Shown: positions 12,433-59,983, numbered from the stretch's first letter. The stretch is 64,000 nt of DNA from Desulfosudaceae bacterium (GCA_963674745.2 CAXXDV010000001.1:864001-928000), one strand, 5' to 3'. A program made the numbers and translations. The notes: generated by a model not told the origin, from the sequence alone.

Positions 12433-12529
12433 ATACAAATCCCGGACCGCAACTCAACGATCCGGGAATAACCCTGTTTTATCCGCAAGATCCTGCGATA
12501 TCCGCTGCGCCCACAGCAAAACCGCTCCT

Positions 12530-12700
12530 TGACCAGGCAGGTCTTCTGGCTTTCGAATCATCCTGGCGGCTGCGTCTTCCCGGCGTCAACACGACAGTGA
12601 CATAATTACAGCCTTCGTCCTCGATTACAGCGGCGGGTCCGCTCCCGTTTTTCACGGGATTCCCTATTAAGCTTAAAAAAAGCGCCTGATCTGTTGTTCT
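12530..12700 (-). promoter_or_regulatory. Cobalamin riboswitch
   Basis: Minus strand AATAGGGAATCCCGTGAAAAACGGGAGCGGACCCGCCGCTGTAA...CACTG...GGGAAG...AAGCCAGAAGACCTGCC (B12 box). Confidence 0.93.
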
Positions 12701-12843
12701 GTTGCCGCATCTTATATATAATCCGCCTGAATATCAAGGGGTTTTGTTTTTTCAGGGCGCCGAAAAAACATTGACGACGGATTCCGGCTGATATACAAAA
12801 ACAAGAAACTTTCAAATAATTTCCAACATTTCAAAAGATACTA

Positions 12844-23490: not shown

Positions 23491-23657
23491 TTTATTCCAC
23501 TGCCGTTCAATTTTTGATGTTTTATGTCTTCATCAGGCTTTAAACCGTTAATAATCCACAGTATCACACAATGCAACCGAGAAATTCACTCTTTTTTGCC
23601 TGGCCCTACATTATGCATGGGCGCCCACCTCGAATTCATGAACACCTTCCACGGCCT

Positions 23658-23819
23658 GTAGGGGCAACCCCCTGTGGTTGCCCTTTACCGGGCAGGCACG
23701 GGGGCCTGCCCCTACGATATTAATGAACAAACGCCTCGATCATGAACGCGCTCCTCGGTCTGTAGGGGCAACCCCCTGTGGTTGCCCTTTACCGGGCGGC
23801 CACAGGGGGCCGCCCCGAC
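23658..23819. repeat. Two tandem GTAG-type REP doublets (23658-23715, 23762-23819)
   Basis: GTAGGGGCAACCCCCTGTGGTTGCCCTTTACCGGGC identical in both, each closed by an inverted REP. Confidence 0.88.
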
Positions 23820-23893
23820 AACATTCGAAAACGGCCTGCAACATCGCAAAAGGAACAAGGGGCTCGGGTTCGAAATGTCGTAGATTATCCGGG

Positions 23894-37905: not shown

Positions 37906-38154
37906 TTACCAGACCTCTTTACCGACTGGTTTTCCCCAATCGGTTTCTTTGGCTTGGTGTTCTTTGGGAATTTTCGCCACAAGATCCTTGAGTTCATATT
38001 TCCTGCGCACTCTTTGGGCTGGGGTGACGATTAAGGAACCATCTTTCACAGAAATATTGACGTTATCGCCCACATTGATTTGTGCGTCCGAAAGCAAGGC
38101 CTTTGTGATGCGAAGGCCTTGGCTATTTCCCCATTTTTGAATTTTTGCAAGCAT
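37906..38154 (-). CDS. mazE: AbrB/MazE family antitoxin
   Basis: KIQKWGNSQGLRI, DWGKPVGKEVW; AGGAGG RBS. Confidence 0.95.
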   Translation of the reverse strand: MLAKIQKWGNSQGLRITKALLSDAQINVGDNVNISVKDGSLIVTPAQRVRRKYELKDLVAKIPKEHQAKETDWGKPVGKEVW

Positions 38155-38168
38155 AAAGCCACCTCCTG

Positions 38169-38209
38169 ATGTATATCCAAAGTATATACATTAAATGTTT
38201 GATGGTCAA
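38169..38209 (-). promoter_or_regulatory. mazEF promoter and operator
   Basis: TTGACC (38209-38204)-17 bp-TATACT (38186-38181); inverted repeat ATGTATAT-N7-ATATACAT over the -10. Confidence 0.8.
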
Positions 38210-38220
38210 GCGTTTTTTCA

Positions 38221-38342
38221 GGCCAACGGCGGGCGCCGCCGGCGAGCAGGGGTTGCAGACTTCGCTAAAGTGAGTTTAACACCAAACTATGCCAAGACAA
38301 AAGCAGCCCGTCCGCGAGTCCGTGTGAGTGGCATTGATAATC
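38221..38342 (-). other. attC of vapBC cassette (family A, degenerate R'')
   Basis: R' GTTGGCC; body homologous to attCs at 39625, 40135, 41296; R'' position reads GATTATC. Confidence 0.8.
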
Positions 38343-38348
38343 ATTCAC

Positions 38349-38723
38349 TTATCTTTTTGGAAAATATTTTACTTTGCTCAAATCTTTGAAATCTGAATCT
38401 TGAGTCCATATCGTTGCGTTATATTCTTTTGCAGTTGCAATGATTATGCTATCAGCCATCGGAATGCCATTTTCCAAGCTTATTTTTGAGGCTGAAATAG
38501 CCAATGAACTCGTCAGGTCCACGACAGAACCTTTCCGCATCGCAACGACTGCCTGTAAGGCTTCATCCTCTCCAGATTCTCGAAGGACTACCTTAAAGAC
38601 CTCATAAATAGTTACTGTCGGGACAACAAGTGACGCCGTGTCTTTTAAGGGGGTGAGAAAGTGTTTAGCGTTTGGCTCATCAGCAAAATATGCAAGCCAA
38701 CCTGAAGAATCGACAATATTCAT
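38349..38723 (-). CDS. vapC: VapC family PIN-domain toxin
   Basis: IVDSS, YEVFK, MADSII, WTQDSDF acidic tetrad. Confidence 0.93.
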   Translation of the reverse strand: MNIVDSSGWLAYFADEPNAKHFLTPLKDTASLVVPTVTIYEVFKVVLRESGEDEALQAVVAMRKGSVVDLTSSLAISASKISLENGIPMADSIIIATAKEYNATIWTQDSDFKDLSKVKYFPKR

Positions 38724-38926
38724 ACTCTGTCTTCCTCTCGTTCGAATTCCGTGTTTATCCCCTTGATAAAGCCACGCAGCTCTTTAATGTCTTTTTCTGG
38801 AATAAGTTCAATTCGACCAATGTATTCAACTACTTGCATTTTTTGCCCAGGACGAATCTGTAGTGCCTGCCTGACTGATTTTGGTATAACAACTTGAAAC
38901 TTGGGTGATACGGTTACAGTTTGCAT
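38720..38926 (-). CDS. AbrB/SpoVT-type antitoxin (VapB)
   Basis: MQTVTVSPKFQVVIPKSVR from ATG 38926 with GGAGG; ATGA overlap with vapC. Confidence 0.9.
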   Translation of the reverse strand: MQTVTVSPKFQVVIPKSVRQALQIRPGQKMQVVEYIGRIELIPEKDIKELRGFIKGINTEFEREEDRV

Positions 38927-38957
38927 GATAAAACCTCCATCGATATTTTTTCGTAAT

Positions 38958-38986
38958 ACGATAGCACTATCGATACGGCTTGTCAA
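38958..38986 (-). promoter_or_regulatory. vapBC promoter and operator
   Basis: TTGACA-17 bp-TATCGT; palindrome CGATAG-CA-CTATCG at 38959-38972. Confidence 0.75.
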
Positions 38987-38998
38987 ATTCTTTCTGAT

Positions 38999-39344
38999 GG
39001 CTAACGAGTCTGTAGGAAAAGTCTATTTTCGATAAATTTTATCTTTTTTCAGAAAAACACCTTCGTAGAATATATTTTATACTAAAACATAAAATCCTTG
39101 CAAACCATCTATTTTAGATGGCTTCACAGAGATCATACAAAATCTTATATAACTTTCAGGTTTTCAAAAATTGGCGGCAAAACCCTATGTTTTACTCAAA
39201 TTTTACTTTTTCTACAGCCTCAACGTCTTCAGCCAATGGGCGCCAGGGCTTCCTCTGACTGTCTTAAAGATGGTTAATGTTCAGTTTCCCCAAAATGTTC
39301 AAAACTCGAGTGCCCTGGCTATCATTTGGGCTGCTTGGTTAAGT
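38999..39344 (-). other. attC (family B) split by a MITE at the R' triplet
   Basis: Removing 39006-39224 restores GGCTAAC-GTCTTCAGCC...GTTAAGT (127 bp), closely similar to attC 41957-42082. Confidence 0.88.
39006..39221. mobile_element. 216-bp non-autonomous IS derivative (MITE)
   Basis: 17-bp terminal inverted repeats GAGTCTGTAGGAAAAGT / ACTTTTTCTACAGCCTC (15/17), flanked by AAC direct repeats. Confidence 0.82.
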
Positions 39345-39630
39345 GCCCGCATTATTCAGAAAGACCTTAACGACAACATGGGCAAATAAAATAAAATGAT
39401 ATTTTTCTTTTTACGCTTTGTCCATCACGAACTTATGAAAACGGGTAGGTCTCTTTTCATCCGGACAAATAAAGGCGCATTATCATTCGGCCGCGCCAGT
39501 TCGAAAATAAAATTTATCTTTACTGGCCGAAAAATTCAACTTGGTGACAATTACCATTTTGGCAACGAATGTCGAATTCAGCCAAAATTCTTTTTTTTAT
39601 TTTTTTCCCGTACAGATTCAGTGCACTTAA
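39345..39630 (-). ncRNA. ORF-less cassette copy A (candidate structured RNA or DNA element)
   Basis: Bounded by attC cores, no ORF-track ORF in cassette direction, paralog at 42083-42365, conserved stems. Confidence 0.45.
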
Positions 39631-39746
39631 CGTCCGCCACCACCGGCGAGCAGGGTTTGCGGACTTCTTAAATGTTAGTTCAACACCACACTATGCCAAA
39701 ACTAAGGCAGCACGCCCCTGCGAGTCTGTGTGAGTGGCGTTGATGT
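39625..39746 (-). other. attC of TPR cassette (family A, apparent 2-bp deletion in R'')
   Basis: R' GTTAAGT; near-identical to 40135-40259; ACATCAACGCC instead of ACATAACAACGCC. Confidence 0.85.
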
Positions 39747-40118
39747 GAAATTTTTTATTGTTAATCCATTTTCCTCGAATAATGTATTATACAAGTCAAT
39801 CTTTCCGCCTTCTTTAATAAACCTTTCGATTTCATGATACATTTCATCTTTTCTGTTTAATGTAAATAGACAAAGGGACAAACAGAAAGACGCAATTTCT
39901 TTTTTGGGAAGAAGTTCTACAGCACGTTTTGCGTAAGGGATTGCGTTTTCGGAATCATTGAGTTCTGAATAATATAAAGTTGCTATCATTGACGCAGATA
40001 CACCGGATTTAGGGTACTTTTCAAGTATATGTTTAAATTCAATAATGGCTTCCTTTACTTTACCTTGGTTCTTTAAGTCAAAGGCGTGCTCATACATTTT
40101 TTCTTCTTCTGAATTCAT
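39702..40118 (-). CDS. Cassette TPR-repeat protein (reads through into attC)
   Basis: TPR-like helices EAIIEFKHILEKYP, NAIPYAKRAVELLP. Confidence 0.75.
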   Translation of the reverse strand: MNSEEEKMYEHAFDLKNQGKVKEAIIEFKHILEKYPKSGVSASMIATLYYSELNDSENAIPYAKRAVELLPKKEIASFCLSLCLFTLNRKDEMYHEIERFIKEGGKIDLYNTLFEENGLTIKNFTSTPLTQTRRGVLP

Positions 40119-40134
40119 ATGCTTAATCTATTAC

Positions 40135-40259
40135 ACATAACGTCCGCCACCACCGGCAAGCAGGGTTTACGGACTTCTTAAAATGTTAGTTCAACACCAC
40201 ACTATGCAAAAACAAAGGCAGCCCGCCCCTGCGAGTCTGTGTGGGTGGCGTTGTTATGT
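40135..40259 (-). other. attC (family A, 125 bp)
   Basis: R'' ACATAAC contains the ORF stop; R' GTTATGT. Confidence 0.92.
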
Positions 40260-40772
40260 GCCCAATAATTTAATCATATATATTAAAACAATGAGTTCTA
40301 ATAATGCGACAAAAGCACCGGCTATCACATGCGAGAATTTGACAAACCAATAAATATCGACCCGATCTGCCAGCCAGCCAATTCTGAACAAATATATTCC
40401 ATAAACTATTATTGCAGTTGGTAGGCCAAAGCTCCAGCGGAAACTACCTTCCGGAATACCTTGTAATACAAAAGTCACCAAGACTATTAAAGTAAAAGCT
40501 GCCAAAAATATGGCAAATAAAGCATGTATTCGAAAAATTTGCTTCACGAAACGTTGCTTGATTAATACATACAAACCACTGAGAAAGATCAGTAAACAAA
40601 AAGGGATATACCAAAATAAAGGTTGTACTTCGTCTAAAGAACCTTCATCGTAATAGATGGCAAACATTCCTCCAATTGCGAGCAAAAAGACAGTACCCGA
40701 ACATTTGACATTCAAGCGGAAAATATTTGCCAAGTCGACATTGTCATATTTTTCAACAAGGTGCGTAATCAC
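40254..40772 (-). CDS. Cassette hypothetical multi-pass membrane protein
   Basis: About 5 hydrophobic segments; AGGA RBS and GTG; fills the cassette. Confidence 0.75.
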   Translation of the reverse strand: MITHLVEKYDNVDLANIFRLNVKCSGTVFLLAIGGMFAIYYDEGSLDEVQPLFWYIPFCLLIFLSGLYVLIKQRFVKQIFRIHALFAIFLAAFTLIVLVTFVLQGIPEGSFRWSFGLPTAIIVYGIYLFRIGWLADRVDIYWFVKFSHVIAGAFVALLELIVLIYMIKLLGT

Positions 40773-40783
40773 TTACATCCTGC

Positions 40784-40911
40784 ACATAACGGCGGCCGCC
40801 AATGGGAGCCAGGGTTTCCACTGACTTGCCGTAAAGATGGTTAATGTTCATTCCCCTCAAAAGTGCAAAACCCGGGTGCCCTGGCGATCCTCTTGCGATG
40901 CCTTGTTATGT
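40784..40911 (-). other. attC (family B, 128 bp)
   Basis: ACATAAC...GCCAGGG/CCCTGGC stem...GTTATGT. Confidence 0.9.
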
Positions 40912-40933
40912 GTTTACGTTTTTTTTCTGTATC

Positions 40934-41263
40934 TTATGTCTCTTTATTCGAGGAATAGTTTTTAGTAACAATAATATTTATTATCAGCACGATAATTACA
41001 AAGACCGTAAAACAAAAATAAATTATAAACAAAGAAACAGAAGCTTTTTCGGAGATATCTTGCACTTTCGAAACATCTTTTAAGACCCCAATAATTTTTA
41101 TGGGGTCTGTTGTGTTATCAATCTCAGAACTTAAATCAGAAACTAAGGAGCTCGTCTGTGTACTTGGAAAACCCATAAGCACAAAAAAAAGAACTGATAT
41201 TGATACAATCAAACCGATAACATTGACACCAGATAGCCAAGATAGGTCTTTTCTTTTTTTCAC
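40934..41263 (-). CDS. Cassette hypothetical 2-TM protein
   Basis: GGAGG RBS, GTG start, two hydrophobic helices. Confidence 0.75.
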   Translation of the reverse strand: MKKRKDLSWLSGVNVIGLIVSISVLFFVLMGFPSTQTSSLVSDLSSEIDNTTDPIKIIGVLKDVSKVQDISEKASVSLFIIYFCFTVFVIIVLIINIIVTKNYSSNKET

Positions 41264-41295
41264 ATATTACCTCCGTACTTTCATAGCTGTGTGAC

Positions 41296-41419
41296 ACATA
41301 ACGTCTGCCACCACCGGCGAGCAGGGTTTACAGACTCAGCAAAAGTTCGTTCAACACCAAACTGTGCCAAAACCAAGGCCGCCCGCACCTGCGAGTCCGT
41401 GTGAGTGGCGTGGTTAGCA
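41296..41419 (-). other. attC (family A, 124 bp)
   Basis: R'' TGCTAAC 2 nt after the ORF stop; R' GTTATGT. Confidence 0.92.
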
Positions 41420-41421
41420 CG

Positions 41422-41943
41422 TTAATCAGTTAGCTTTCTTTTCAGAAATTCATATATCTTTGCATAATCCTTGTTCCCAAAATAAATCAAAATGCAAATG
41501 AGTGATACCATAAATATTATAAATACTATAAACCATTTATATAAAAGTATATGGCTGATAATCTGGGGTAACGAATTGAATTTAGAAAAGGCATCATTGA
41601 ATACTCCAAAAAGTAGAATCAATAAGAATAAGCATATAGCTATAAGCCAGTACCGTAACAGAAATGATAATGAAATTTTACCATTTAACGAAACCTTTCC
41701 ATCACGCTCATTGAATTTTCCAACGAATTGAGGCCTCAAAGGAGAGCCCAGAAACCATCGATAATAATAAATAATCACATTATCTTTTTTGATTTTTCCG
41801 ACAAAATTGTTCTGAAAGATCGTGTTGAAATGATTTGTCTCTGTTCCCATCTGAAGTGTTGCTATTGAACTTTTTAAATCATAAGCACTTGTAATATCAA
41901 CATCTTGCTTCTTCCAAAAAATCATTTTAATTATTCTTATCAT
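41422..41943 (-). CDS. Cassette hypothetical membrane protein (soluble N-terminus + 2 TM)
   Basis: ORF fills the cassette between two attCs. Confidence 0.75.
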   Translation of the reverse strand: MIRIIKMIFWKKQDVDITSAYDLKSSIATLQMGTETNHFNTIFQNNFVGKIKKDNVIIYYYRWFLGSPLRPQFVGKFNERDGKVSLNGKISLSFLLRYWLIAICLFLLILLFGVFNDAFSKFNSLPQIISHILLYKWFIVFIIFMVSLICILIYFGNKDYAKIYEFLKRKLTD

Positions 41944-41956
41944 TTTTCAGAGTGCG

Positions 41957-42082
41957 TGCTAACGTCTGCAGCCAAAGTAGCCAGGGCTTCCAGTGACTGA
42001 CTTTAAGGTGGTTGATGTTCAATTTCCCCCGAATGTTCAAAAGCCGAATGCCCTGGCTATCATTTGGGCTGCTTGGTTAAGT
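41957..42082 (-). other. attC (family B, 126 bp)
   Basis: R'' ACTTAAC; R' GTTAGCA. Confidence 0.92.
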
Positions 42083-42365
42083 GCCCGCATTATTGAGAAA
42101 GACTTTAACGACAGCATGGGCAAATAAATTAAAATGATATTTTTCTTTTTACGCCTTGTCCATCATGAACTTATGAAAACGGGTAGGTCTCTTTTCATCC
42201 GGACAAATAAAGGCTCAAAATCAAACAGTCCCGCCAGATCAAAATACAGCTTATCTTTACTGATTGAAAATATCAATCTGGTGACAATTTCCATAGTGGC
42301 AACGAAGATCATTTTTCGTCAAAATTCTTTTTTTATTTTTTCCCGTACAGATTAAGTGCACTTAA
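42083..42365 (-). ncRNA. ORF-less cassette copy B, first position of the array
   Basis: Paralog of 39345-39630; begins with perfect palindrome TTAAGTGCACTTAA. Confidence 0.45.
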
Positions 42366-42385
42366 CTATGTTATTAGATAGGCTG
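42360..42385 (-). other. Probable attI site
   Basis: Minus strand CCTATCTAATAACATA-GTTAAGT: GTTRRRY core with no attC upstream, between the array and a divergent integrase-like stub. Confidence 0.7.
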
Positions 42386-42618
42386 CTTGATTTCATCCCG
42401 TTTCTGTATACTTAACCATAAATTTGATTAACTACAAATAATTTTTCATTGGACGATGAAATGGTTTTTATGCCATAAATTTAGATAATTAGGTTGTTCT
42501 GACTTTATCTATATAAATTTATTGACGCACGTTTAATAAAGAATTAGGGTCTTAAACGGGCATGCTTGATAATTTTTCATTTTACTTAGCACGCAATCTT
42601 CAGGTTCAGGGAGGAACT

Positions 42619-42873
42619 ATGGAAAAATTCGCTGATTATCTCATTTCAAAGTCAATCATACCGGAAAACCAGATTCCGTACTATATCGGGTGGGTGAAAG
42701 CCTTTTTCCGGTTCCTGGACAAAGACACGTCCGAAAATGTAACGGCAGATGAAATTGACCGGTATATTAAAGGACTGGTCAAACTGGTTGAAGCGTGGCA
42801 GTTAAAACAGGCCAGGCAGGCGATCCAGGCGTTCTGTTTTTTCCAGGGCCAGCCACCTCCGAATATGCCTTAG
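42619..42873 (+). pseudogene. Truncated integron-integrase-like gene (N-terminal SAM-like domain only)
   Basis: GGAGG RBS; F..YL...QIPYYIGWVKAFF...WQLKQARQAI resembles the N-terminal extension of long integron integrases (recalled); divergent from array; no catalytic domain. Confidence 0.65.
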
Positions 42874-42913
42874 CGCGATACAGGACCCGGGTCGAAGGCC
42901 TGGCGCTTCATAT

Positions 42914-42951
42914 AAAAAGCGTCATCCCCGAAGCCGGGGATGACGCTTTTT
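42914..42951. terminator. Bidirectional intrinsic terminator
   Basis: AAAAAGCGTCATCCCCG-AAGC-CGGGGATGACGCTTTTT. Confidence 0.88.
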
Positions 42952-42983
42952 GAATACAAAAAAGGACGCGTTCAACGACGGGC

Positions 42984-44891
42984 TCAGATGGCTCGCGCCG
43001 CCTCGTATCCTTCGTGAACCGCGAATACGATCTTTCTGGGCTGCTTGGCATCGCCGATCACGACCACCTGGTAATCCTTCAGCTCTTCGGCCAGATCACT
43101 ATTGGGTCTTGAGCCGATGGCCACAACAACCGTATCGGCTGCAATGATCTGCTGTTCACCGTTGACCTCGCCGACAATACCATCAGCCGTGATTTCCTTG
43201 ACGGCAAAGGCGTTGATCTGTTCGATACCGCATTCGTTCAGGCACTGCATGATAACCCACTTGGTACCCGGCCCGATGTTGTGCCCCATCTTGTCCAGCA
43301 TTTCCAGCTGGACCACTTTCTTGCCTTCTTTGGCCAGGTGCAGACAGACATCACAACCGGTGCCGCCGCCGCCGATAACCGCCACCGTCTCTCCGGGCAC
43401 GGGTTTGCCCACCAGCACATCCCAGGCGTGCATGACATTGTCCCGATCCACGCCTTTGATGGGCGGAGAAGCCGGAACAGCGCCTGCCGCGTATATTATC
43501 ACATCCGGTTTTTCAGCCGCCACGGTCTCTTTATCAGCGGTCTGACCGAGCTTGACCGTTACGCCCAGATCCTTGAGCATGGCCGTAAAATATTCCCCGA
43601 CCAGGGCAAACTCGCCGAAATCCGGGGTCTGGGAGGCCAGTTTCAACTGCCCGCCCAGGCGGTCACTGTTATCGATCAGCACCACTTCGTGCCCGCGGAC
43701 AGCGGCCACCCGTGCGGCTTCACAACCACCTGGGCCACCGCCGATAACCAGCACCTTCTTTTTCTCGGCTGCCGGCTGGAGCTCGCCGTAAAGTGACTCC
43801 CGGCAGGCCTCGGCATTAATGGCGCAGGTCACCGGTTTGCCTTCAAACAGGCTGTCCATGCAATTCATGCAGGCGATACACCGGCGGATCAGCTCGGGAC
43901 GGCCGGCCTTGACCTTGTTGGGCAGATCGGGATCGCACACCAGCGGCCGGGCCATACAGACCATGTCGGCTTTGCCCGAGGCCAGGATCTCCTCGGCCAG
44001 TTCGGCGCTGTTGATACGGTTGGAGGCCGCCACCGGGGCGTGATCAAGCGCGCTTTTGATGCCTTCGGCCATCCAGACATAACCGCCGCGGGGGACATTC
44101 ATGGTGATCATGGGTTCCAGGGATTCATGCCAGCCGGCCGTAATGTTAAAGGCATCCGCCCCGGCATCTTCCCATATTTTCGCGAACTGCTTCATATCAT
44201 CCAGCTTGTTGCCGCCCGGCACCAATTCATCTCCCACCATACGGACAAAAAGCGGGTAATCATCCCCCACATTTTCCCGGATGGACGCAATGATCTCCGT
44301 ACCGAACCGGGCCCGGTTCTCCAGGCTGCCGCCGTACGCGTCGGTCCGCAGGTTGGTGGCCGGGCTCATGAACTGGCTGATCAGGTAGCCGGCGCTGGCA
44401 ATGATCTCCACGCAGTCATATCCGGCGGTTTTGGCCCGGGCCGCAGCCGCGCCAAAGGCGTCTACGATCTCTTTGATCTCTTCAACCGTCAGGGCACGGG
44501 GTTTTTGTTTGGAAAAAATCGGCGGGGCCACGTCCGAGGCACTGACCGCCTGATTGCCGGTCAGAAACGTCATTTCATAGCGGCCCGGATGCCACAACTG
44601 GATGCTGGCTTGAGAATCATATTGATGGATTGCTTTGACCATCCGCTCATGTCCGGGCAGAAATTTATCATCGGAAATATCCAGCCCCATCACCATGCCC
44701 GGTACCACCGGGCTGATACCGACCGTTACCAGTCCGGCACCGCCCTTGGCCCGGCGTTCATAATAGGCCACGGCCGCGTCATTGATTTCGCCCATGGCGA
44801 CGTTAACCGTCAAAGCCGGCATGATGATTCGATTGGGCATCGTCATTGATTTAATGGTCATCGGTTCCATCAAGTGTTTGAATTCGGACAT
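42984..44891 (-). CDS. NADH:flavin oxidoreductase, 2,4-dienoyl-CoA reductase (FadH)-like
   Basis: OYE barrel (GYLISQF, RTDAYGGSLENRAR), CIACMNC Fe-S motif, GGGPGG FAD site. Confidence 0.9.
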   Translation of the reverse strand: MSEFKHLMEPMTIKSMTMPNRIIMPALTVNVAMGEINDAAVAYYERRAKGGAGLVTVGISPVVPGMVMGLDISDDKFLPGHERMVKAIHQYDSQASIQLWHPGRYEMTFLTGNQAVSASDVAPPIFSKQKPRALTVEEIKEIVDAFGAAAARAKTAGYDCVEIIASAGYLISQFMSPATNLRTDAYGGSLENRARFGTEIIASIRENVGDDYPLFVRMVGDELVPGGNKLDDMKQFAKIWEDAGADAFNITAGWHESLEPMITMNVPRGGYVWMAEGIKSALDHAPVAASNRINSAELAEEILASGKADMVCMARPLVCDPDLPNKVKAGRPELIRRCIACMNCMDSLFEGKPVTCAINAEACRESLYGELQPAAEKKKVLVIGGGPGGCEAARVAAVRGHEVVLIDNSDRLGGQLKLASQTPDFGEFALVGEYFTAMLKDLGVTVKLGQTADKETVAAEKPDVIIYAAGAVPASPPIKGVDRDNVMHAWDVLVGKPVPGETVAVIGGGGTGCDVCLHLAKEGKKVVQLEMLDKMGHNIGPGTKWVIMQCLNECGIEQINAFAVKEITADGIVGEVNGEQQIIAADTVVVAIGSRPNSDLAEELKDYQVVVIGDAKQPRKIVFAVHEGYEAARAI

Positions 44892-55168: not shown

Positions 55169-57031
55169 ATGACCGACCATCTTTCAAAAATCCGTCCCGT
55201 GTTGAAAACGCTTCCGCCCTTTTTCTTTCTAACGGTTATTGCCATCATTAGTTACGGCAACTCGTTTAACGCGCCGTTCGTCTTTGACGATCTGCCCCAG
55301 ATCATTGAAAACCCCCATATCCGAATAACCGGATATTCATCGGATATTCCAGCACGATTGATGAATTGCCGCAATCCCAACCGGTTTCTGGCCTATGCCA
55401 CCTTTGCCCTGAACTATTATGTTCATCAATACGAGGTGGCCGGGTATCATTTAGTCAACGTGATTATTCATATTATAACGGCTTTTCTCGTCTTTTTAAT
55501 CGCCCGGATGACTTCCCGGCTGTGCGATGAAAAGCCCTCTGTCCTGCTGCCTTTTCTGGCCGCCGCCCTGTGGCTGGTGAGCCCGGTTCATACCCAGTCG
55601 GCAACCTATATCGTTCAGCGCATGAACGCCATGGCAGCCATGTTTACCCTCCTGGCCCTCTGCTGCTTTGTCCGGGCAAGATTAATGCAGAGAAGCGACA
55701 AATCAGGTCTCAAGCCGATCCTGCTTTATGCCGGGGTCGGTTTTTCCGGTCTGTGCGGCCTGGCCGCCAAGGAAACCGGCGCCATCCTGCCAATTGTCCT
55801 CCTGCTTTACGAATGGTATTTCTTCCAGGACCTGAACCGCGCCTGGATAAAAAAGCAGTTGGCATGGATAAATGTCGTGCTGCTATTGCTGATCATCATC
55901 GGCTTCGTGTATATGGGCTGGCACCCCCTGGAACGACTGACGCACATGTATGAAGAACATGATTTCACCATGGGTCAACGCCTGCTGACCGAGCCGCGGG
56001 TGGTCCTGTACTACCTGACCCTGCTTGTTTTCCCGCATCCAAGCCGCCTTACGCTGGACTATAATTTCCCCCTGTCCCTGTCATCGTTTAATCCGGCCAC
56101 GACCCTGCCGGCCATCCTCGGTCTTGTGGCCCTGATTGTCATTGCCGTATATACGGCTCGCAGGCACCGGCTGTTTTCATTTGCCATTATCTGGTTTCTG
56201 GTTACCCTGGTCATTGAATCATCGTTTATCGGGCTGGCCATTATCTTTGAACACCGAACATACCTGCCGTCAGTTTTTGTGGCCATCGGACTGGTCTGGT
56301 TAATGTTTTCCCACCTTCGGCCAAAGATATTCGCCACCTTACTTTTATGTCTTGCCATCGGCATCAGCAGTTTATGGACACATCAAAGAAACAATACCTG
56401 GAACAATCCCATCTCTCTTTGGCAGGACACAATTCAAAAGTCCTTGGGCAAAGCCCTTCACTATAATAATATTGGCGCTATATTTGCTGAACAGGGCATC
56501 AGCGATAAGGCCGTTAACTACTACAAAAAGGCCTTACAGTTAGATCCAAAGTATACACTTGCTTATAACAATCTGGGCGTTGAGCTGTCAAAAACGGGCC
56601 GTCGCCACGAGGCGATTGACGCTTATCGAACAGTGCTGACAATAGACCCCGAGTATGATTCAGCTCACTATAACCTTGGAAACAATTTATTACAGGCCGG
56701 ATTTATCGACGCTGCAATCAGTCATTATGAAGCGGCGGTCAGGCTCAAGCCGGATAATATAAACATGTTGAACAACCTGGGCTCGGCTTATACGATCGCA
56801 AATCGGTTGGAAGACGCCATTAATTGTTATCTCAGAGCACTACGAATCGATCCGGACTCTGACCTGGCGATCAGAAATTTAGCCACTGTACTGGCCAACT
56901 TTAAAGACATCGAAAAAGCTGTTGACCGTTTTTTGCGCCCCGAGTTATCACGCCGGCAGCTGGCCAGGGTCTACAACCGTATCTCGATAATTTGTCTGGA
57001 GAAAAAAGATTTGGCGACAGCAGAAGAATAG
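55169..57031 (+). CDS. TMTC-like membrane glycosyltransferase with TPR repeats (probable premature stop)
   Basis: FVFDD, KETG, FEHRTYLPS, TPRs; paralog of 58040-59983. Confidence 0.82.
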   Translation: MTDHLSKIRPVLKTLPPFFFLTVIAIISYGNSFNAPFVFDDLPQIIENPHIRITGYSSDIPARLMNCRNPNRFLAYATFALNYYVHQYEVAGYHLVNVIIHIITAFLVFLIARMTSRLCDEKPSVLLPFLAAALWLVSPVHTQSATYIVQRMNAMAAMFTLLALCCFVRARLMQRSDKSGLKPILLYAGVGFSGLCGLAAKETGAILPIVLLLYEWYFFQDLNRAWIKKQLAWINVVLLLLIIIGFVYMGWHPLERLTHMYEEHDFTMGQRLLTEPRVVLYYLTLLVFPHPSRLTLDYNFPLSLSSFNPATTLPAILGLVALIVIAVYTARRHRLFSFAIIWFLVTLVIESSFIGLAIIFEHRTYLPSVFVAIGLVWLMFSHLRPKIFATLLLCLAIGISSLWTHQRNNTWNNPISLWQDTIQKSLGKALHYNNIGAIFAEQGISDKAVNYYKKALQLDPKYTLAYNNLGVELSKTGRRHEAIDAYRTVLTIDPEYDSAHYNLGNNLLQAGFIDAAISHYEAAVRLKPDNINMLNNLGSAYTIANRLEDAINCYLRALRIDPDSDLAIRNLATVLANFKDIEKAVDRFLRPELSRRQLARVYNRISIICLEKKDLATAEE

Positions 57032-58039: not shown

Positions 58040-59983
58040 ATGACAAAAGCATTTTCAGACACGCCCCCGGGGGTCAAAAATTTTCTGGCGTCAGTCCTGC
58101 TTATAATTATCGTTCTTATCGTCTATGCCAACACCTTCGACGCTCCTTTTGTATTCGACGACCTGCTGAACATAAAAGAAAACGTGGGCATCCGCCTGAC
58201 CCGATTTACACCGGAGTCCCTGGCCAGGGTGCTGGGTTCTGACCGGCCGCTGGCCGGATTGAGTTTTGCCCTCAACTACTATTTCCATGCCGATGATGTC
58301 CGGGGGTATCATCTCCTCAACCTGGTTATCCATATTATCACCGGCCTGCTGATCATGCTTGTGGCCGAACAGACCTTGCGGCGTTGCGAAATGGGAAGCA
58401 CCGCAATCCCTGTTTTCGCTGCCGGATTGTGGCTGGTACACCCCGTGCACACCCAGTCCGTCACATACATTGTTCAGCGAATGAATGCCATGGCAACCAT
58501 GTTTTATATGCTGGCCCTGTTCTGCTACATCCGGGCCCGGGTAAAAACGGCAGACGGCATCAACCCTTTTGAACGGGCCTTGCTTTATGCTTTATGCCTG
58601 GTATCCGCCATTCTCGGGCTGGCCGCCAAGGAAACCGTGGCCACCCTGCCGATCATACTACTGCTGTATGAATGGTTCTTTTTTCAACACATGAACTCGA
58701 CCTGGCTAAAAAAACAACTTCCCTGGATCGGACTGGTGATCCTGACGACAATGGTCCTGATTGTCTTTTTCATGGGTGACAACCCCTTGAACACGATCTA
58801 CGGTATGTATGACAAACTTGATTTTACCCTTAAACAACGTTTATTGACCCAGGCCAGCGTCGTTGTTTATTACGTTTCACTGCTGGTTTTTCCCTTTCCG
58901 TCCCGGCTTACGCTGGTTTATGATTTTCCGTTGTCCCGCACTATGACAGAACCAATGCCTACCGCCCTGGCGATAACGGCCCTGGTTATGCTTTGCGCCG
59001 CTGTCCTTTGCTCAACCCGGAAGCATCCCCTGCCGGCGTTCTGCATCGTCTGGTTTCTGGTCACCCTGAGTGTTGAATCCACGGTCATCGGCCTTGATCT
59101 GATCTTTGAACACCGGACCTATCTGCCTTCCATTTTTCCGTTGATCGGATTCGTCTGGCTGGCGTTTACCCGGATCCCGGCCAAAGCAGCCGCGGTCGCC
59201 ATCATCAGTACCGCCATCATTGCCTGTGGCATCTGGACACATCAGCGAAACAGCACCTGGCAAAGCCCCGTCCGTCTCTGGCAGGACACCGTTAACAAAT
59301 CACCCGGCAAGGCCCTGCCCTATAACAACCTGGCCGTCTGTTTAGCGGAATCCGGCCGTCTTGATGAGGCCGTTTCAAATTATCAGACAGCCCTTGACAT
59401 AAAGCCTGACTATGCCTCTGCGCATTACAACCTGGGAGTGGACTTATACCAGACCGGCCGTCACCCTTCGGCCATCGACCATTTAGAAACCGCCGTGCGG
59501 CTGGAACCGGAAAACGTCCAGGCCTTGAACGCCCTGGGTCTGGCTTATGCCGCAGCCGGGCGCGGGGAAGATGCCGTAAACAGCTACTTCCAAGCGCTTC
59601 ATGTAAGACCGGATTTTATGCCGGCACTGACCAATCTGGGCATCGCACTGGCGGCATCCCTGCGTGCTGGTGAAAGCATCAACACTTTTTCTATATCGGG
59701 GCTCTCCCCCTGGCAGCTGGCCCGGATTTACAACAGCGCGGCCAGCGATTTCATTAAAGCAGGAGACCTGGATTCGGCCGGACTATATTACTATAACGCG
59801 GTTCAACTGGATCCCGCTTATATTGACGGTTTATATAACCTCGGCCTGGTGCTGGCCCGGGAAAAAGCGTTTCAACAAGCAGCAGCCGTGTATGCCCGCA
59901 TACTGGCCATCAGCCCGCACGAAGAAACCGCCCGGAAAAGGCATGCGTATTGCCTGAGCATGATGGCCGGCGGCACGAATTGA
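58040..59983 (+). CDS. TMTC-like membrane glycosyltransferase with TPR repeats
   Basis: FVFDD, YIVQRM, FEHRTYLPS, TPRs. Confidence 0.85.
   Translation: MTKAFSDTPPGVKNFLASVLLIIIVLIVYANTFDAPFVFDDLLNIKENVGIRLTRFTPESLARVLGSDRPLAGLSFALNYYFHADDVRGYHLLNLVIHIITGLLIMLVAEQTLRRCEMGSTAIPVFAAGLWLVHPVHTQSVTYIVQRMNAMATMFYMLALFCYIRARVKTADGINPFERALLYALCLVSAILGLAAKETVATLPIILLLYEWFFFQHMNSTWLKKQLPWIGLVILTTMVLIVFFMGDNPLNTIYGMYDKLDFTLKQRLLTQASVVVYYVSLLVFPFPSRLTLVYDFPLSRTMTEPMPTALAITALVMLCAAVLCSTRKHPLPAFCIVWFLVTLSVESTVIGLDLIFEHRTYLPSIFPLIGFVWLAFTRIPAKAAAVAIISTAIIACGIWTHQRNSTWQSPVRLWQDTVNKSPGKALPYNNLAVCLAESGRLDEAVSNYQTALDIKPDYASAHYNLGVDLYQTGRHPSAIDHLETAVRLEPENVQALNALGLAYAAAGRGEDAVNSYFQALHVRPDFMPALTNLGIALAASLRAGESINTFSISGLSPWQLARIYNSAASDFIKAGDLDSAGLYYYNAVQLDPAYIDGLYNLGLVLAREKAFQQAAAVYARILAISPHEETARKRHAYCLSMMAGGTN

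Follow-up and report, generated by a model that had tools for sequence, protein, structure and literature searches.

We identified two copies of an integron cassette, here called X, in a 64,000-nucleotide stretch of Desulfosudaceae DNA (the window). X appears to be a lineage-specific, gene-less cassette amplified by the integron integrase, and its likeliest activity, in a reading that we hold with about even confidence, would be to start transcription from a conserved AT-rich module. The genome carries 27 full-length copies of X (17 A-type and 10 B-type), spread over six arrays with 2, 14, 3, 1, 5 and 2 copies. We found ~239 attC matches in the genome, grouped in 15 clusters, and X made up ~11% (about a ninth) of the attC-bounded cassettes; the runner-up repeated family had 8 copies. 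X was ~410 bp long, consisting of a body of ~285 nt and an attC of 121 nt, and pairwise identity among the copies was 84-100%. All 27 started at GTTAAGT (G|TTAAGT) and ended in ...GACG|TT, and their attC sites scored 108-121 bits against the genome's own attC profile. When the genome was searched with profiles of the whole body and of its three parts, the same 27 copies were returned with zero partial relatives. X was co-oriented with the neighbouring cassettes throughout all six arrays. Clustering was weak, since we counted five tandem X-X pairs where random placement of 27 in 239 predicts ~2.9, and by eye the ORF orientation of the cassettes downstream of X had no bias. Word depth in read contigs from three runs on positions 38000-43200 was higher over X parts, which is not a copy number; those contigs were short and broken at repeats. 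With crossover sites and an attC of its own, and placed within arrays in varied settings, X is a bona fide integron cassette and by far the most amplified one in the genome.

X was the first cassette in two of the four integrase-linked arrays, and it was third and eighth/tenth in the remaining two. Copy B was found to abut attI, in agreement with the original prediction, and the intact integron at C3:29 kb likewise carries X as its first cassette. The attI sequences next to these two copies differed, as did the X alleles themselves; X was inserted independently at two different attI sites. The genome encodes three intact integrases. Over 85 residues, the intI remnant near copy B shares 49% identity with the N-terminal part of an intact 443-aa IntI from the same genome. 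Since the 27 copies occupy six arrays and two distinct attI sites, we concluded that X is moved by the integron integrase, being excised as a circle and then re-inserted.

Table 1. Positions in the window of the two X copies, their parts and the neighbouring integron features
Feature	Position	Strand	Basis or remark
X copy A, A-type, sixth cassette of the window array, crossover to crossover	39224..39630	-	bounded by G|TTAAGT (5') and G|TTGAGG (3'); body 39345-39630
X copy B, B-type, first cassette, abutting attI	41964..42365	-	body 42083-42365
attC of copy A	39224..39344	-	nhmmer attC profile, 120.9 bits; R'' box ACTTAAC at 39338-39344 (minus strand)
attC of copy B	41964..42082	-	attC profile
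Conserved 3' module, copy A	39345..39475	-	least variable stretch of the body; copy B equivalent 42083-42213
Nested inverted repeat TTGTCC/GGACAA around ATGAAAA/TTTTCAT	39417..39469	.	paired in 100% and 98.7% of cells; almost invariant
Inverted repeat TGCCC/GGGCA beside the R'' box	39344..39384	.	5 pairs: 3 invariant, 2 with a one-sided change to sense-strand G-U
Sense promoter-like site TGGACA-17-TATCAT, towards attC and the next cassette	39396..39424	-	10/12 consensus matches; copy B 42134-42162
Antisense promoter-like site ACGACA-16-TAAAAT, through the body towards attI	39370..39397	+	9/12 consensus matches; copy B 42108-42135
Variable middle, copy A; two alleles A/B	39476..39582	-	30 substitutions and 1 gap in 107 columns; copy B 42214-42319
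Antisense terminator-like hairpin TTTTGGC...GCCAAAA, then T8-A-T7 run, copy A	39557..39606	+	fold energy; not flagged by terminator scan
attI region, between copy B and the intI remnant	42366..42618	.	junction resembles attI of the intact integron at C3:29 kb
intI remnant, first ~85 codons only	42619..42873	+	Pfam PF13495, E = 3.7e-7; TIGR02249 only 18.5 bits

The original prediction of two related cassettes in the window was confirmed, with the minus strand as the cassette orientation. Copies A and B were 86% identical over ~410 nt (E = 2e-132). They share the common core and the attC that had been described, both beginning at G|TTAAGT and carrying the R'' box ACTTAAC, and the named inverted repeats were present (Table 1). 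A MazE-PIN pair adjoins copy A. The predicted pattern of conservation was exact: the attC-proximal part had 6 substitutions in 138 columns, the middle was divergent to the extent given in the table, and the far (5') end was again conserved, with 2 substitutions and a 2-base indel in 49 columns. Among the 27 copies, A-vs-B divergence was 0.274 in the middle and 0.041 in the 3' module, and the 5' 47 nt of X, which include a run of ~16 A, were conserved. The constant ends and the variable middle are real, but the middle comes as two alleles only. The idea that a constant scaffold presents a variable region conferring specificity was therefore borne out for the ends and the divergent middle and not for specificity, as there are merely two alleles and no complementary genomic target beyond chance; when the whole bodies of three haplotypes were compared with their own genome, the best matches were 15-16 nt, mostly A-rich, with E of at least 0.3.

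Diversity within the types was then compared with divergence between them. The middle segment had a diversity of 0.008 within the B-type and 0.064 within the A-type, and the B-type body as a whole 0.005-0.008. For the 3' module and attC, A-vs-B divergence was equal to within-type diversity, and attC variants were shuffled across the two body alleles. X copies recombine with one another, and the 3' module and attC are homogenised across two old middle alleles. In the older A-type, pi in the hairpin module (columns 166-236) was 0.033 as compared to 0.064 in the middle, and the middle, 5' end and attC centre spanned 0.064-0.082.

Such data could also come from a selfish or neutral hitch-hiker, useless to the cell and to the integron, that became numerous through frequent excision and re-insertion and owes its conservation to recent copying and gene conversion instead of selection. 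We regard this as possible but rather unlikely. The near-identical B-type copies indicate a recent burst, and the shuffled attC variants, together with A-vs-B divergence of the 3' module and attC at the within-type level, are signs of gene conversion. X was also found in no other genome searched, and a selfish element is one of the two options that Boucher et al. gave for such families (PMC1382264). On the other hand, the hairpin module of the A-type is only about half as variable as the other segments, which hints at some constraint, the attC of X is not unusually stable (-20.8 versus -21.6 +/- 3.6 kcal/mol), and useless cassettes are readily lost through excision, as argued in the text of PMC11014356. 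Either promoter activity or simple selfish over-replication may have been the driving force of the amplification.

Searches for X elsewhere gave no real match in 40 relatives and 400 genomes of the phylum, and a covariance model of the module gave none in 150 relatives. X was absent even from a 99%-complete congener that has the same attC family, and phages and plasmids yielded zero matches. A 20-base invariant motif of X had no match in genome contigs and one in metagenome contigs (L025), where only those 21 letters were common, and a scan with the gapped hairpin pattern gave one chance match in a Lachnospiraceae MAG (L027). The alignment of outside homologues that had been suggested as a check was met with none to align among phylum genomes, metagenomes, phages and plasmids. 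The non-coding Vibrio cassettes are described in PMC1382264 as highly paralogous as well, with up to 45 copies and with homologues limited to close relatives.

X had been put forward as a mobile non-coding RNA family. A mobile non-coding family it is, its 27 copies running exactly from G|TT to G|TT in varied settings and including insertions at two attI sites, but the structured RNA part of the proposal was not supported. Just one of 36 tested pairs was changed on both sides, in one A/B event, and 18 were invariant; the three conserved stems were uninformative on covariation because they hardly vary. The middle hairpin, which was thought to keep its pairing despite substitutions, had one true double change (A-T to G-C). 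The haplotype seen most often, in 10 of the 27 copies (9 of 22 distinct bodies of alignment A2), breaks two of the six pairs of this hairpin. RNAalifold, run on both strands, found most variable pairs broken in some copies. Fold energies were compared with dinucleotide shuffles for both strands as RNA and DNA, and no excess stability was seen (z -1.06 to +0.52), the whole body having z values of -0.14, -1.06, +0.52 and -0.08 and the module -0.63 and -0.40. Rfam gave no match to X, whether the gathering threshold or a limit of E <= 10 was applied. Significant covariation, folding beyond shuffles, a curated family and homologues elsewhere were each looked for and not found, and X as a folded RNA, or the structured ssDNA that had been offered as the alternative, is unsupported. 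We also rejected an operator motif, as the strict hairpin motif was confined to X (6/6 matches) and the loose form TGAAAA...TTTTCA occurred 33 times elsewhere with no common pattern.

A role in single-stranded DNA, with the conserved hairpins aiding the folding and recombination of their own attC as a cis-acting enhancer, seems very improbable. The stems directly adjoin the R'' box, the cassette ends lengthen the R'/R'' pairing by two base pairs, and no other cassette of the genome is as successful as X. However, the DNA fold of the body's bottom strand did not exceed shuffles in stability (z = -0.59), the wobble-compatible changes lie on the top strand and not on the recombining bottom strand, and attC stability is ordinary. 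The related candidate of a 'super-attC' was dropped, the bottom-strand fold of the X attC given above being ordinary against 86 others of the same attC family.

We examined coding potential on both strands. The original statement that neither copy has an ORF in cassette orientation did not hold for copy B, which has a 49-aa ORF at 42163-42312. Sense ORFs in X reach 49 aa at most, and in both window copies a longer ORF runs along the opposite strand; conservation was seen for neither the sense nor the antisense ORF. The antisense ORF is 73-79 aa in the B-type and open-ended in the A-type, which exceeds the limits of ~210 bp (Blanco) and 150 bp (Boucher), and its frame changes between the alleles. 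Indels of 1 nt and 2 nt separate the A and B alleles and shift the frame of the ORFs on both strands, and the start codon of the small sense ORF was lost in 3 of the 17 A-type copies (ATG to ATT). A Pfam search with three X ORFs gave zero matches. The 73-aa antisense ORF had a single match among 5.8 billion proteins, P0001, which is an A-type X copy read into the neighbouring attC. X can be taken as non-coding by the substance of the gene-less definition, with the B-type exceeding the literal length rule.

These results also bear on a small protein or type I toxin-antitoxin, in which a sense peptide of 16-49 aa from the middle would be repressed by an overlapping antisense RNA and the alleles would be cognate pairs, comparable to Ibs/Sib of E. 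coli. In a 16-codon frame, the codon differences between the alleles include two that are synonymous and a Lys/Arg exchange; X is present in many copies and its middle is allelic; and toxin-antitoxin cassettes are common in large arrays, as the MazE-PIN pair beside copy A illustrates. However, apart from the lost start codons, there is zero visible Shine-Dalgarno sequence upstream, no Pfam domain, and a peptide that has 16-24 residues in the A-type and 49 in the B-type because of the frame-shifting indel. Judged from its sequence, the peptide is too short and too polar for a membrane span. X has no conserved small hydrophobic ORF with an intact start, and we give this explanation hardly any weight.

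Transcription start from X, our preferred reading, centers on the AT-rich 3' module. The body of X has 36% G+C as compared to 50.5% for the genome. In this proposal, the module would start transcription within otherwise promoter-poor arrays, mainly in the sense direction from TGGACA-17-TATCAT, with read-through across attC into the next cassette, and additional antisense activity is possible. X would then resemble in function the 'promoter cassettes' known from Vibrio and Treponema integrons. The sense site, at 10/12, is level with the top-scoring site of the 3.7-kb array region, and 25 of the 27 copies keep one of at least 9/12. Dinucleotide shuffling of the body produced a site of at least 10/12 in 6.3% of cases, and among 200 other cassettes 26 contain such a site; the predicted promoter-like sites of X are not above chance. 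The host is not a Vibrio, and these sites, scored by consensus match, may not follow its promoter rules. According to Blanco et al., in-silico promoter calls failed to predict activity in such cassettes, and sense promoter activity was found in 25 of 30 gene-less Vibrio cassettes (PMC11014356); Treponema cassettes without an ORF are reported to act as promoters (PMC6557892). The sense -10 hexamer was the most variable block of the conserved module, with 4 of 6 columns polymorphic and 13 variant copies. A sense promoter near the 3' end leaves the conserved 5' 47 nt with its ~16-A run unexplained.

We also considered transcription in the opposite direction, for which X would be a self-contained antisense small-RNA gene. 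Here the ACGACA-16-TAAAAT promoter in the conserved module would fire towards attI to give an RNA of ~200 nt, with a constant 5' hairpin domain, an allelic middle possibly setting target choice, and a terminator (a hairpin and ~15 U) at the 5' end of the cassette. This model covers the entire conservation pattern. Its -35 and -10 hexamers had 1 and 4 variant copies as compared to 13 for the sense -10, the site was kept in 23 of the 27 copies, and the variable columns 238-241 between the antisense -10 and the predicted start form a low-constraint zone. The hairpin-adjacent run of 7-8 U was unchanged in 26 of the 27 copies, with a single substitution in one. A hairpin precedes the U run in both alleles, made from different sequences; in copy B, at about 42295-42345, a different and weaker one stands before the same T run. 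The fold energy of this segment was -12.3 to -14.0 kcal/mol in the A-type and -7.4 in the B-type. The cassette-borne sRNA-Xcc1 of Xanthomonas, facing against Pc, offers a precedent (PMC12444791, PMC6557892).

Several observations run counter to an antisense RNA. Its promoter matches at just 9/12, unremarkable in AT-rich DNA (a shuffled strand has 0.41 sites of this quality), the terminator scan made no call at the hairpin, and the weak B-allele stem (-7.4 kcal/mol) ends 8 nt before the U run. The antisense fold equals shuffles (z = -1.06 and -0.08). All four pair-keeping one-sided changes in the three conserved stems, as well as the middle-hairpin wobbles, are sense-strand G-U, which would be A-C mismatches in the antisense RNA. 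Genomic complementarity of 15-16 nt (E at least 0.3) is not beyond chance, and Rfam matches were zero. On balance, an antisense small RNA has a real though small chance of being correct. The fuller form is an integrase-spread antisense sRNA gene that combines a promoter of its own with a constant 5' hairpin domain, either of two allelic 'address' segments and a terminator made of a hairpin and a U run. This gene, whose leaky read-through from first position into attI/intI would tune the integrase and its own spread, strikes us as doubtful. If true, it would be the first amplified, allelic sRNA cassette family, feeding back on the integron itself.

Gene-less cassettes form a sizeable, little understood fraction of chromosomal integrons, with experiments so far limited to Vibrio and Treponema. 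The present genome provides a clean test case outside these two, with about one in nine cassettes being X, two alleles on one backbone, two attI sites and three intact integrases. Should X prove to be a promoter cassette, the function would not be confined to Vibrio, and large arrays could be active over much of their length; should it be an antisense RNA or a pure parasite, it would illustrate other ways of exploiting the integron.

Among known systems, sRNA-Xcc1 of Xanthomonas (Chen et al. 2011, via PMC6557892 and PMC12444791) has the layout of the antisense model, a cassette-borne non-coding transcript against Pc. As these sources summarize it, its cassette is common with symE, it is conserved across 13 species and its expression was shown, whereas X is without a partner gene, its homologues were not found and its transcript is predicted only. 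The promoter cassettes (Blanco et al. 2024, PMC11014356; Tansirichaiya et al. 2019, PMC6557892) are, like X, AT-rich and ORF-less, lie within arrays and have Sigma-70-like sites on both strands. X also occurs as a first cassette, as does TMB4 of Treponema. Promoter activity was measured in those cassettes, while for X it is inferred from sequence with predicted sites not above chance; X is ~410 bp long as compared to 491-666 bp, and the 73-aa antisense ORF of the B-type is slightly over their 70-aa limit. X resembles the paralogous non-coding cassettes of Vibrio (Boucher et al. 2006, PMC1382264) in having no ORF, conservation over the full length, many paralogues per genome (6 to 45 copies in Vibrio versus 27 for X), and homologues in very close relatives only, or none. 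Gene conversion was suspected for them too, and the same two candidates, selfish element or promoter, were named. X differs from the Vibrio families in its host, its attC family and its location in six arrays versus one super-integron. X also combines a homogenised backbone with two strongly diverged versions of its 107-nt middle, an arrangement absent from the account of the families excerpted from PMC1382264. X adds a further case to the known gene-less cassettes and is, on present evidence, an ordinary one of its kind.

The two window members of the ORF-less integron cassette family X (a body of ~285 nt and an attC of ~121 nt, in A-type and B-type alleles) both started at G|TTAAGT and ended in a 119-121-nt attC with the R'' box ACTTAAC. 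The cassettes of the window array lie on the minus strand and run leftwards from attI, and the placing of one X copy in position 1 was borne out by copy B. The hand counts of the original prediction also proved exact: copies A and B differed by 6 substitutions in the 138 columns of the attC-proximal conserved part (the 3' module), by 30 substitutions and one gap in the 107 columns of the variable middle, and, across the 49-column far (5') end, by 2 substitutions and an indel of 2 bases. The window integron has lost its integrase, and a remnant of intI alone stands beside attI. The genome has three intact integrase genes scoring above the TIGR02249 cut-off, with ORFs long relative to the 315-position family model. 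The 443-aa enzyme carries an extra N-terminal SAM-like domain (~97 residues) ahead of its integrase match; the window remnant corresponds to this domain and is 49% identical to the N-terminus of that protein over 85 residues.

Coordinates of the cassette copies, integron components and other features (C1, contig of the same genome; other bare coordinates refer to the window, except for the integrase loci L028, L029 and L014)
Feature	Position	Strand	Details
Cobalamin riboswitch	12519-12704	minus	full-length RF00174 match, 105.8 bits
GC-rich direct repeats	23636-23721, 23740-23825		adjacent, 86 nt, 85% identity, internal palindromes in each
MazE-type antitoxin (88 aa) and PIN-domain toxin (124 aa)	38349-38986	minus	cassette directly downstream of copy A
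X copy A (A-type)	39224-39630	minus	sixth cassette of window array
Hairpin and T8-A-T7 run	39557-39606	plus (antisense)	copy A
X copy B (B-type)	41964-42365	minus	first cassette, at attI
attI region	about 42366-42618		between copy B and intI remnant
intI remnant ORF	42619-42873	plus	Phage_int_SAM_4 domain, E = 3.7e-7; ~85 N-terminal codons left
Flavin oxidoreductase gene, 635 aa (Oxidored_FMN / Pyr_redox)	42984-44891	minus	beyond intI remnant, unrelated
Repeated blocks	55756-56312, 58615-59171		2859 nt apart, 73-75% identity; probably paralogous genes
Intact integrase	L028 664-1812		382 aa
Intact integrase	L029 917-2248 (C1:2117116-2118447)		443 aa
Intact integrase	L014 3-1115		at least 371 aa
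Head-to-tail X-X pair, A-A	C1:1486951-1487778		largest array
Head-to-tail X-X pair, B-B	C1:1500336-1501161		largest array
Head-to-tail X-X pair, A-B	C1:1520682-1521510		largest array
Head-to-tail X-X pair, B-B	C1:1523106-1523931		largest array
Head-to-tail X-X pair, B-A	C1:1529258-1530084		largest array
Sense promoter-like site TGGACA-17-TATCAT	both window copies		10/12, consensus scan; towards attC and next cassette
Antisense promoter-like site ACGACA-16-TAAAAT			9/12, consensus scan; kept in 23/27 copies

The duplicated ORF-less cassette was confirmed and extended from 2 to 27 full-length copies (84-100% identity) in the genome (5.55 Mb, three contigs). Profile searches of this genome with the whole body, or with the 5' end, middle and 3' module singly, returned the same 27 and no partial or more distant relative. 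Iterated attC profiles found ~239 attC sites in 15 clusters; very large arrays such as C1:1480166-1531326 (88 attC) and, on contig C3, C3:1821285-1857918 (45 attC) had no integron integrase match nearby. X was present in six arrays (2, 14, 3, 1, 5 and 2 copies) and was the largest family after clustering of all attC-to-attC bodies, which took in the 24 X copies with an attC on both flanks. The next family, with a body of 262-264 nt and a sense ORF of 54-68 aa, numbered 8 copies distributed over five C1 and C3 arrays. By a crude count over all arrays, 80 of 224 attC-to-attC bodies held no complete ORF of at least 70 aa on either strand, and several of these formed small multi-copy families (e.g., 406 nt x3 and 412-413 nt x2). 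X was the first cassette at two attI sites, as a B-type copy in the window and as an A-type copy in the integron at C3:29 kb. Since these attI sites are related but clearly different, X was inserted there in two separate events. In the remaining two integrase-linked arrays X stood third in one, and eighth and tenth in the other. Five X-X pairs were directly tandem against ~2.9 expected at random by our arithmetic, a weak excess.

The longest ORF in cassette orientation was 16-24 aa in A-type and 49 aa in B-type copies, and its start changed from ATG to ATT in 3 of 17 A-type copies. The antisense strand is T-rich with few stops in two of three frames; its ORF was 73-79 aa in B-type copies and in A-type copies extended beyond the cassette. 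Because 1-nt and 2-nt indels separate the alleles, the antisense "proteins" would lie in different frames between the indels. Pfam matched neither sense nor antisense ORFs, and the single match of the 73-aa antisense ORF among 5.8 billion proteins was an A-type X copy itself, read through into the next attC. In substance X is non-coding, but the antisense ORF is longer than the limits used for gene-less cassettes (about 210 bp by Blanco et al., 150 bp by Boucher et al.).

BLAST with the X body gave no genuine match in 40 relatives (four low-complexity matches of 22-40 nt) or in 400 genomes sampled across the phylum (two such matches). None of 150 relatives matched a covariance model built on the 140-nt module, scans for exact patterns gave chance matches alone in 185,579 species genomes and a metagenome collection, and phage and plasmid collections yielded no match. 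The attC family of X was nonetheless present in four of the five close relatives examined (15 matches in one of them, a congener of 99% completeness), and integron integrases in 7 of 12 relatives. Within the set of genomes searched, X is therefore an expansion private to this lineage.

Between the 17 A-type and the 10 B-type copies, divergence was 0.274 for the middle, against 0.041 for the 3' module and 0.008-0.082 for attC. Divergence in the latter two equaled the diversity within each type, and attC variants were common to both body types, indicating homogenization of, or constraint on, the flanks, with two old alleles surviving in the middle. The near-identity of the B-type bodies (diversity 0.005-0.008) points to a recent burst, and the A-type copies are, judging from their diversity of 0.03-0.08, the older. 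Within the A-type, the module's hairpin portion had a diversity of 0.033, about half that of the middle, 5' end or attC center.

The original prediction proposed a mobile structured RNA or ssDNA element, which X is not demonstrably; the structured-RNA reading failed in the tests applied. Rfam gave no match on X, either against the whole window at gathering thresholds, where the cobalamin riboswitch was the sole match, or against the array region at E <= 10. Whole bodies folded no better than dinucleotide shuffles on either strand (z for copy A, -0.14 on the sense and -1.06 on the antisense strand; for copy B, +0.52 and -0.08), and neither the conserved 3' module (z = -0.63 and -0.40) nor the bottom strand folded as DNA (z = -0.59) stood apart from shuffles. 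In the RNAalifold structures of the 22 distinct bodies, on either strand, some copies disrupted the majority of the variable pairs. Among the 36 pairs of six helices named in the original prediction or by us, one changed on both sides in this alignment (G-C to A-U, middle hairpin); the six cells with the change were all B-type, so it counts as one event. The middle hairpin did keep its pairing, as predicted, in B-type copies and in a single A haplotype, but lost 2 of 6 pairs in the commonest haplotype. The three conserved stems were paired in 99-100% of cells and hardly vary, and are thus uninformative for or against structure. All four of their one-sided changes that keep pairing were to G-U on the sense strand, a small hint in favor of that strand (chance about 1 in 16 by our estimate); two further changes break pairs.

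The X body is 36% G+C against 50.5% for the genome. The most likely activity of X, to which we give roughly an even chance, would be to start transcription within the conserved module, which is AT-rich. A sense promoter-like site that scores at least 9/12 and retains the key A and T was kept in 25 of 27 copies; its candidate -10 hexamer falls in columns 237-252, where the module varies most (0.121). Neither the sense nor the antisense site was significant against shuffles and other cassettes, a site of at least 10/12 occurring in 6.3% of shuffles and in 26 of 200 other cassettes. That X is instead an antisense sRNA gene is improbable in our estimate, and that it is a functionless selfish cassette is equally doubtful; both are serious rivals to transcription initiation. 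The former would account for a small-gene layout of promoter-like site, constant hairpin domain, allelic middle and hairpin with T8-A-T7, and a hairpin precedes the T run in both alleles, formed by a different sequence in each (-12.3 to -14.0 kcal/mol for A-type copies, -7.4 for the B-type). However, a terminator scan made no call there, and the B-type stem ends 8 nt before the T run. Transcription initiation is favored mainly because of experiments in Vibrio and Treponema. Blanco et al. (PMC11014356) report measured sense promoter activity for 25 of 30 gene-less Vibrio cassettes, some also antisense, which in-silico promoter calls failed to predict. Promoter activity was likewise shown for Treponema cassettes by Tansirichaiya et al. 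(PMC6557892), who discuss a first-position ORF-less cassette as a possible influence on intI. An sRNA borne on a cassette is also known, sRNA-Xcc1, oriented against Pc (PMC6557892, PMC12444791).

In the passages of Boucher et al. (PMC1382264) that deal with them, non-coding Vibrio cassettes are typically paralogous, one family having 45 and 34 copies in two V. vulnificus strains, and show full-length conservation with homologues in close relatives alone; selfishness or a promoter role is proposed. X belongs to this already described class of amplified, gene-less cassettes as a new member specific to its lineage, and is new in its two-allele middle on a homogenized backbone, its spread over six arrays and its two attI insertions.
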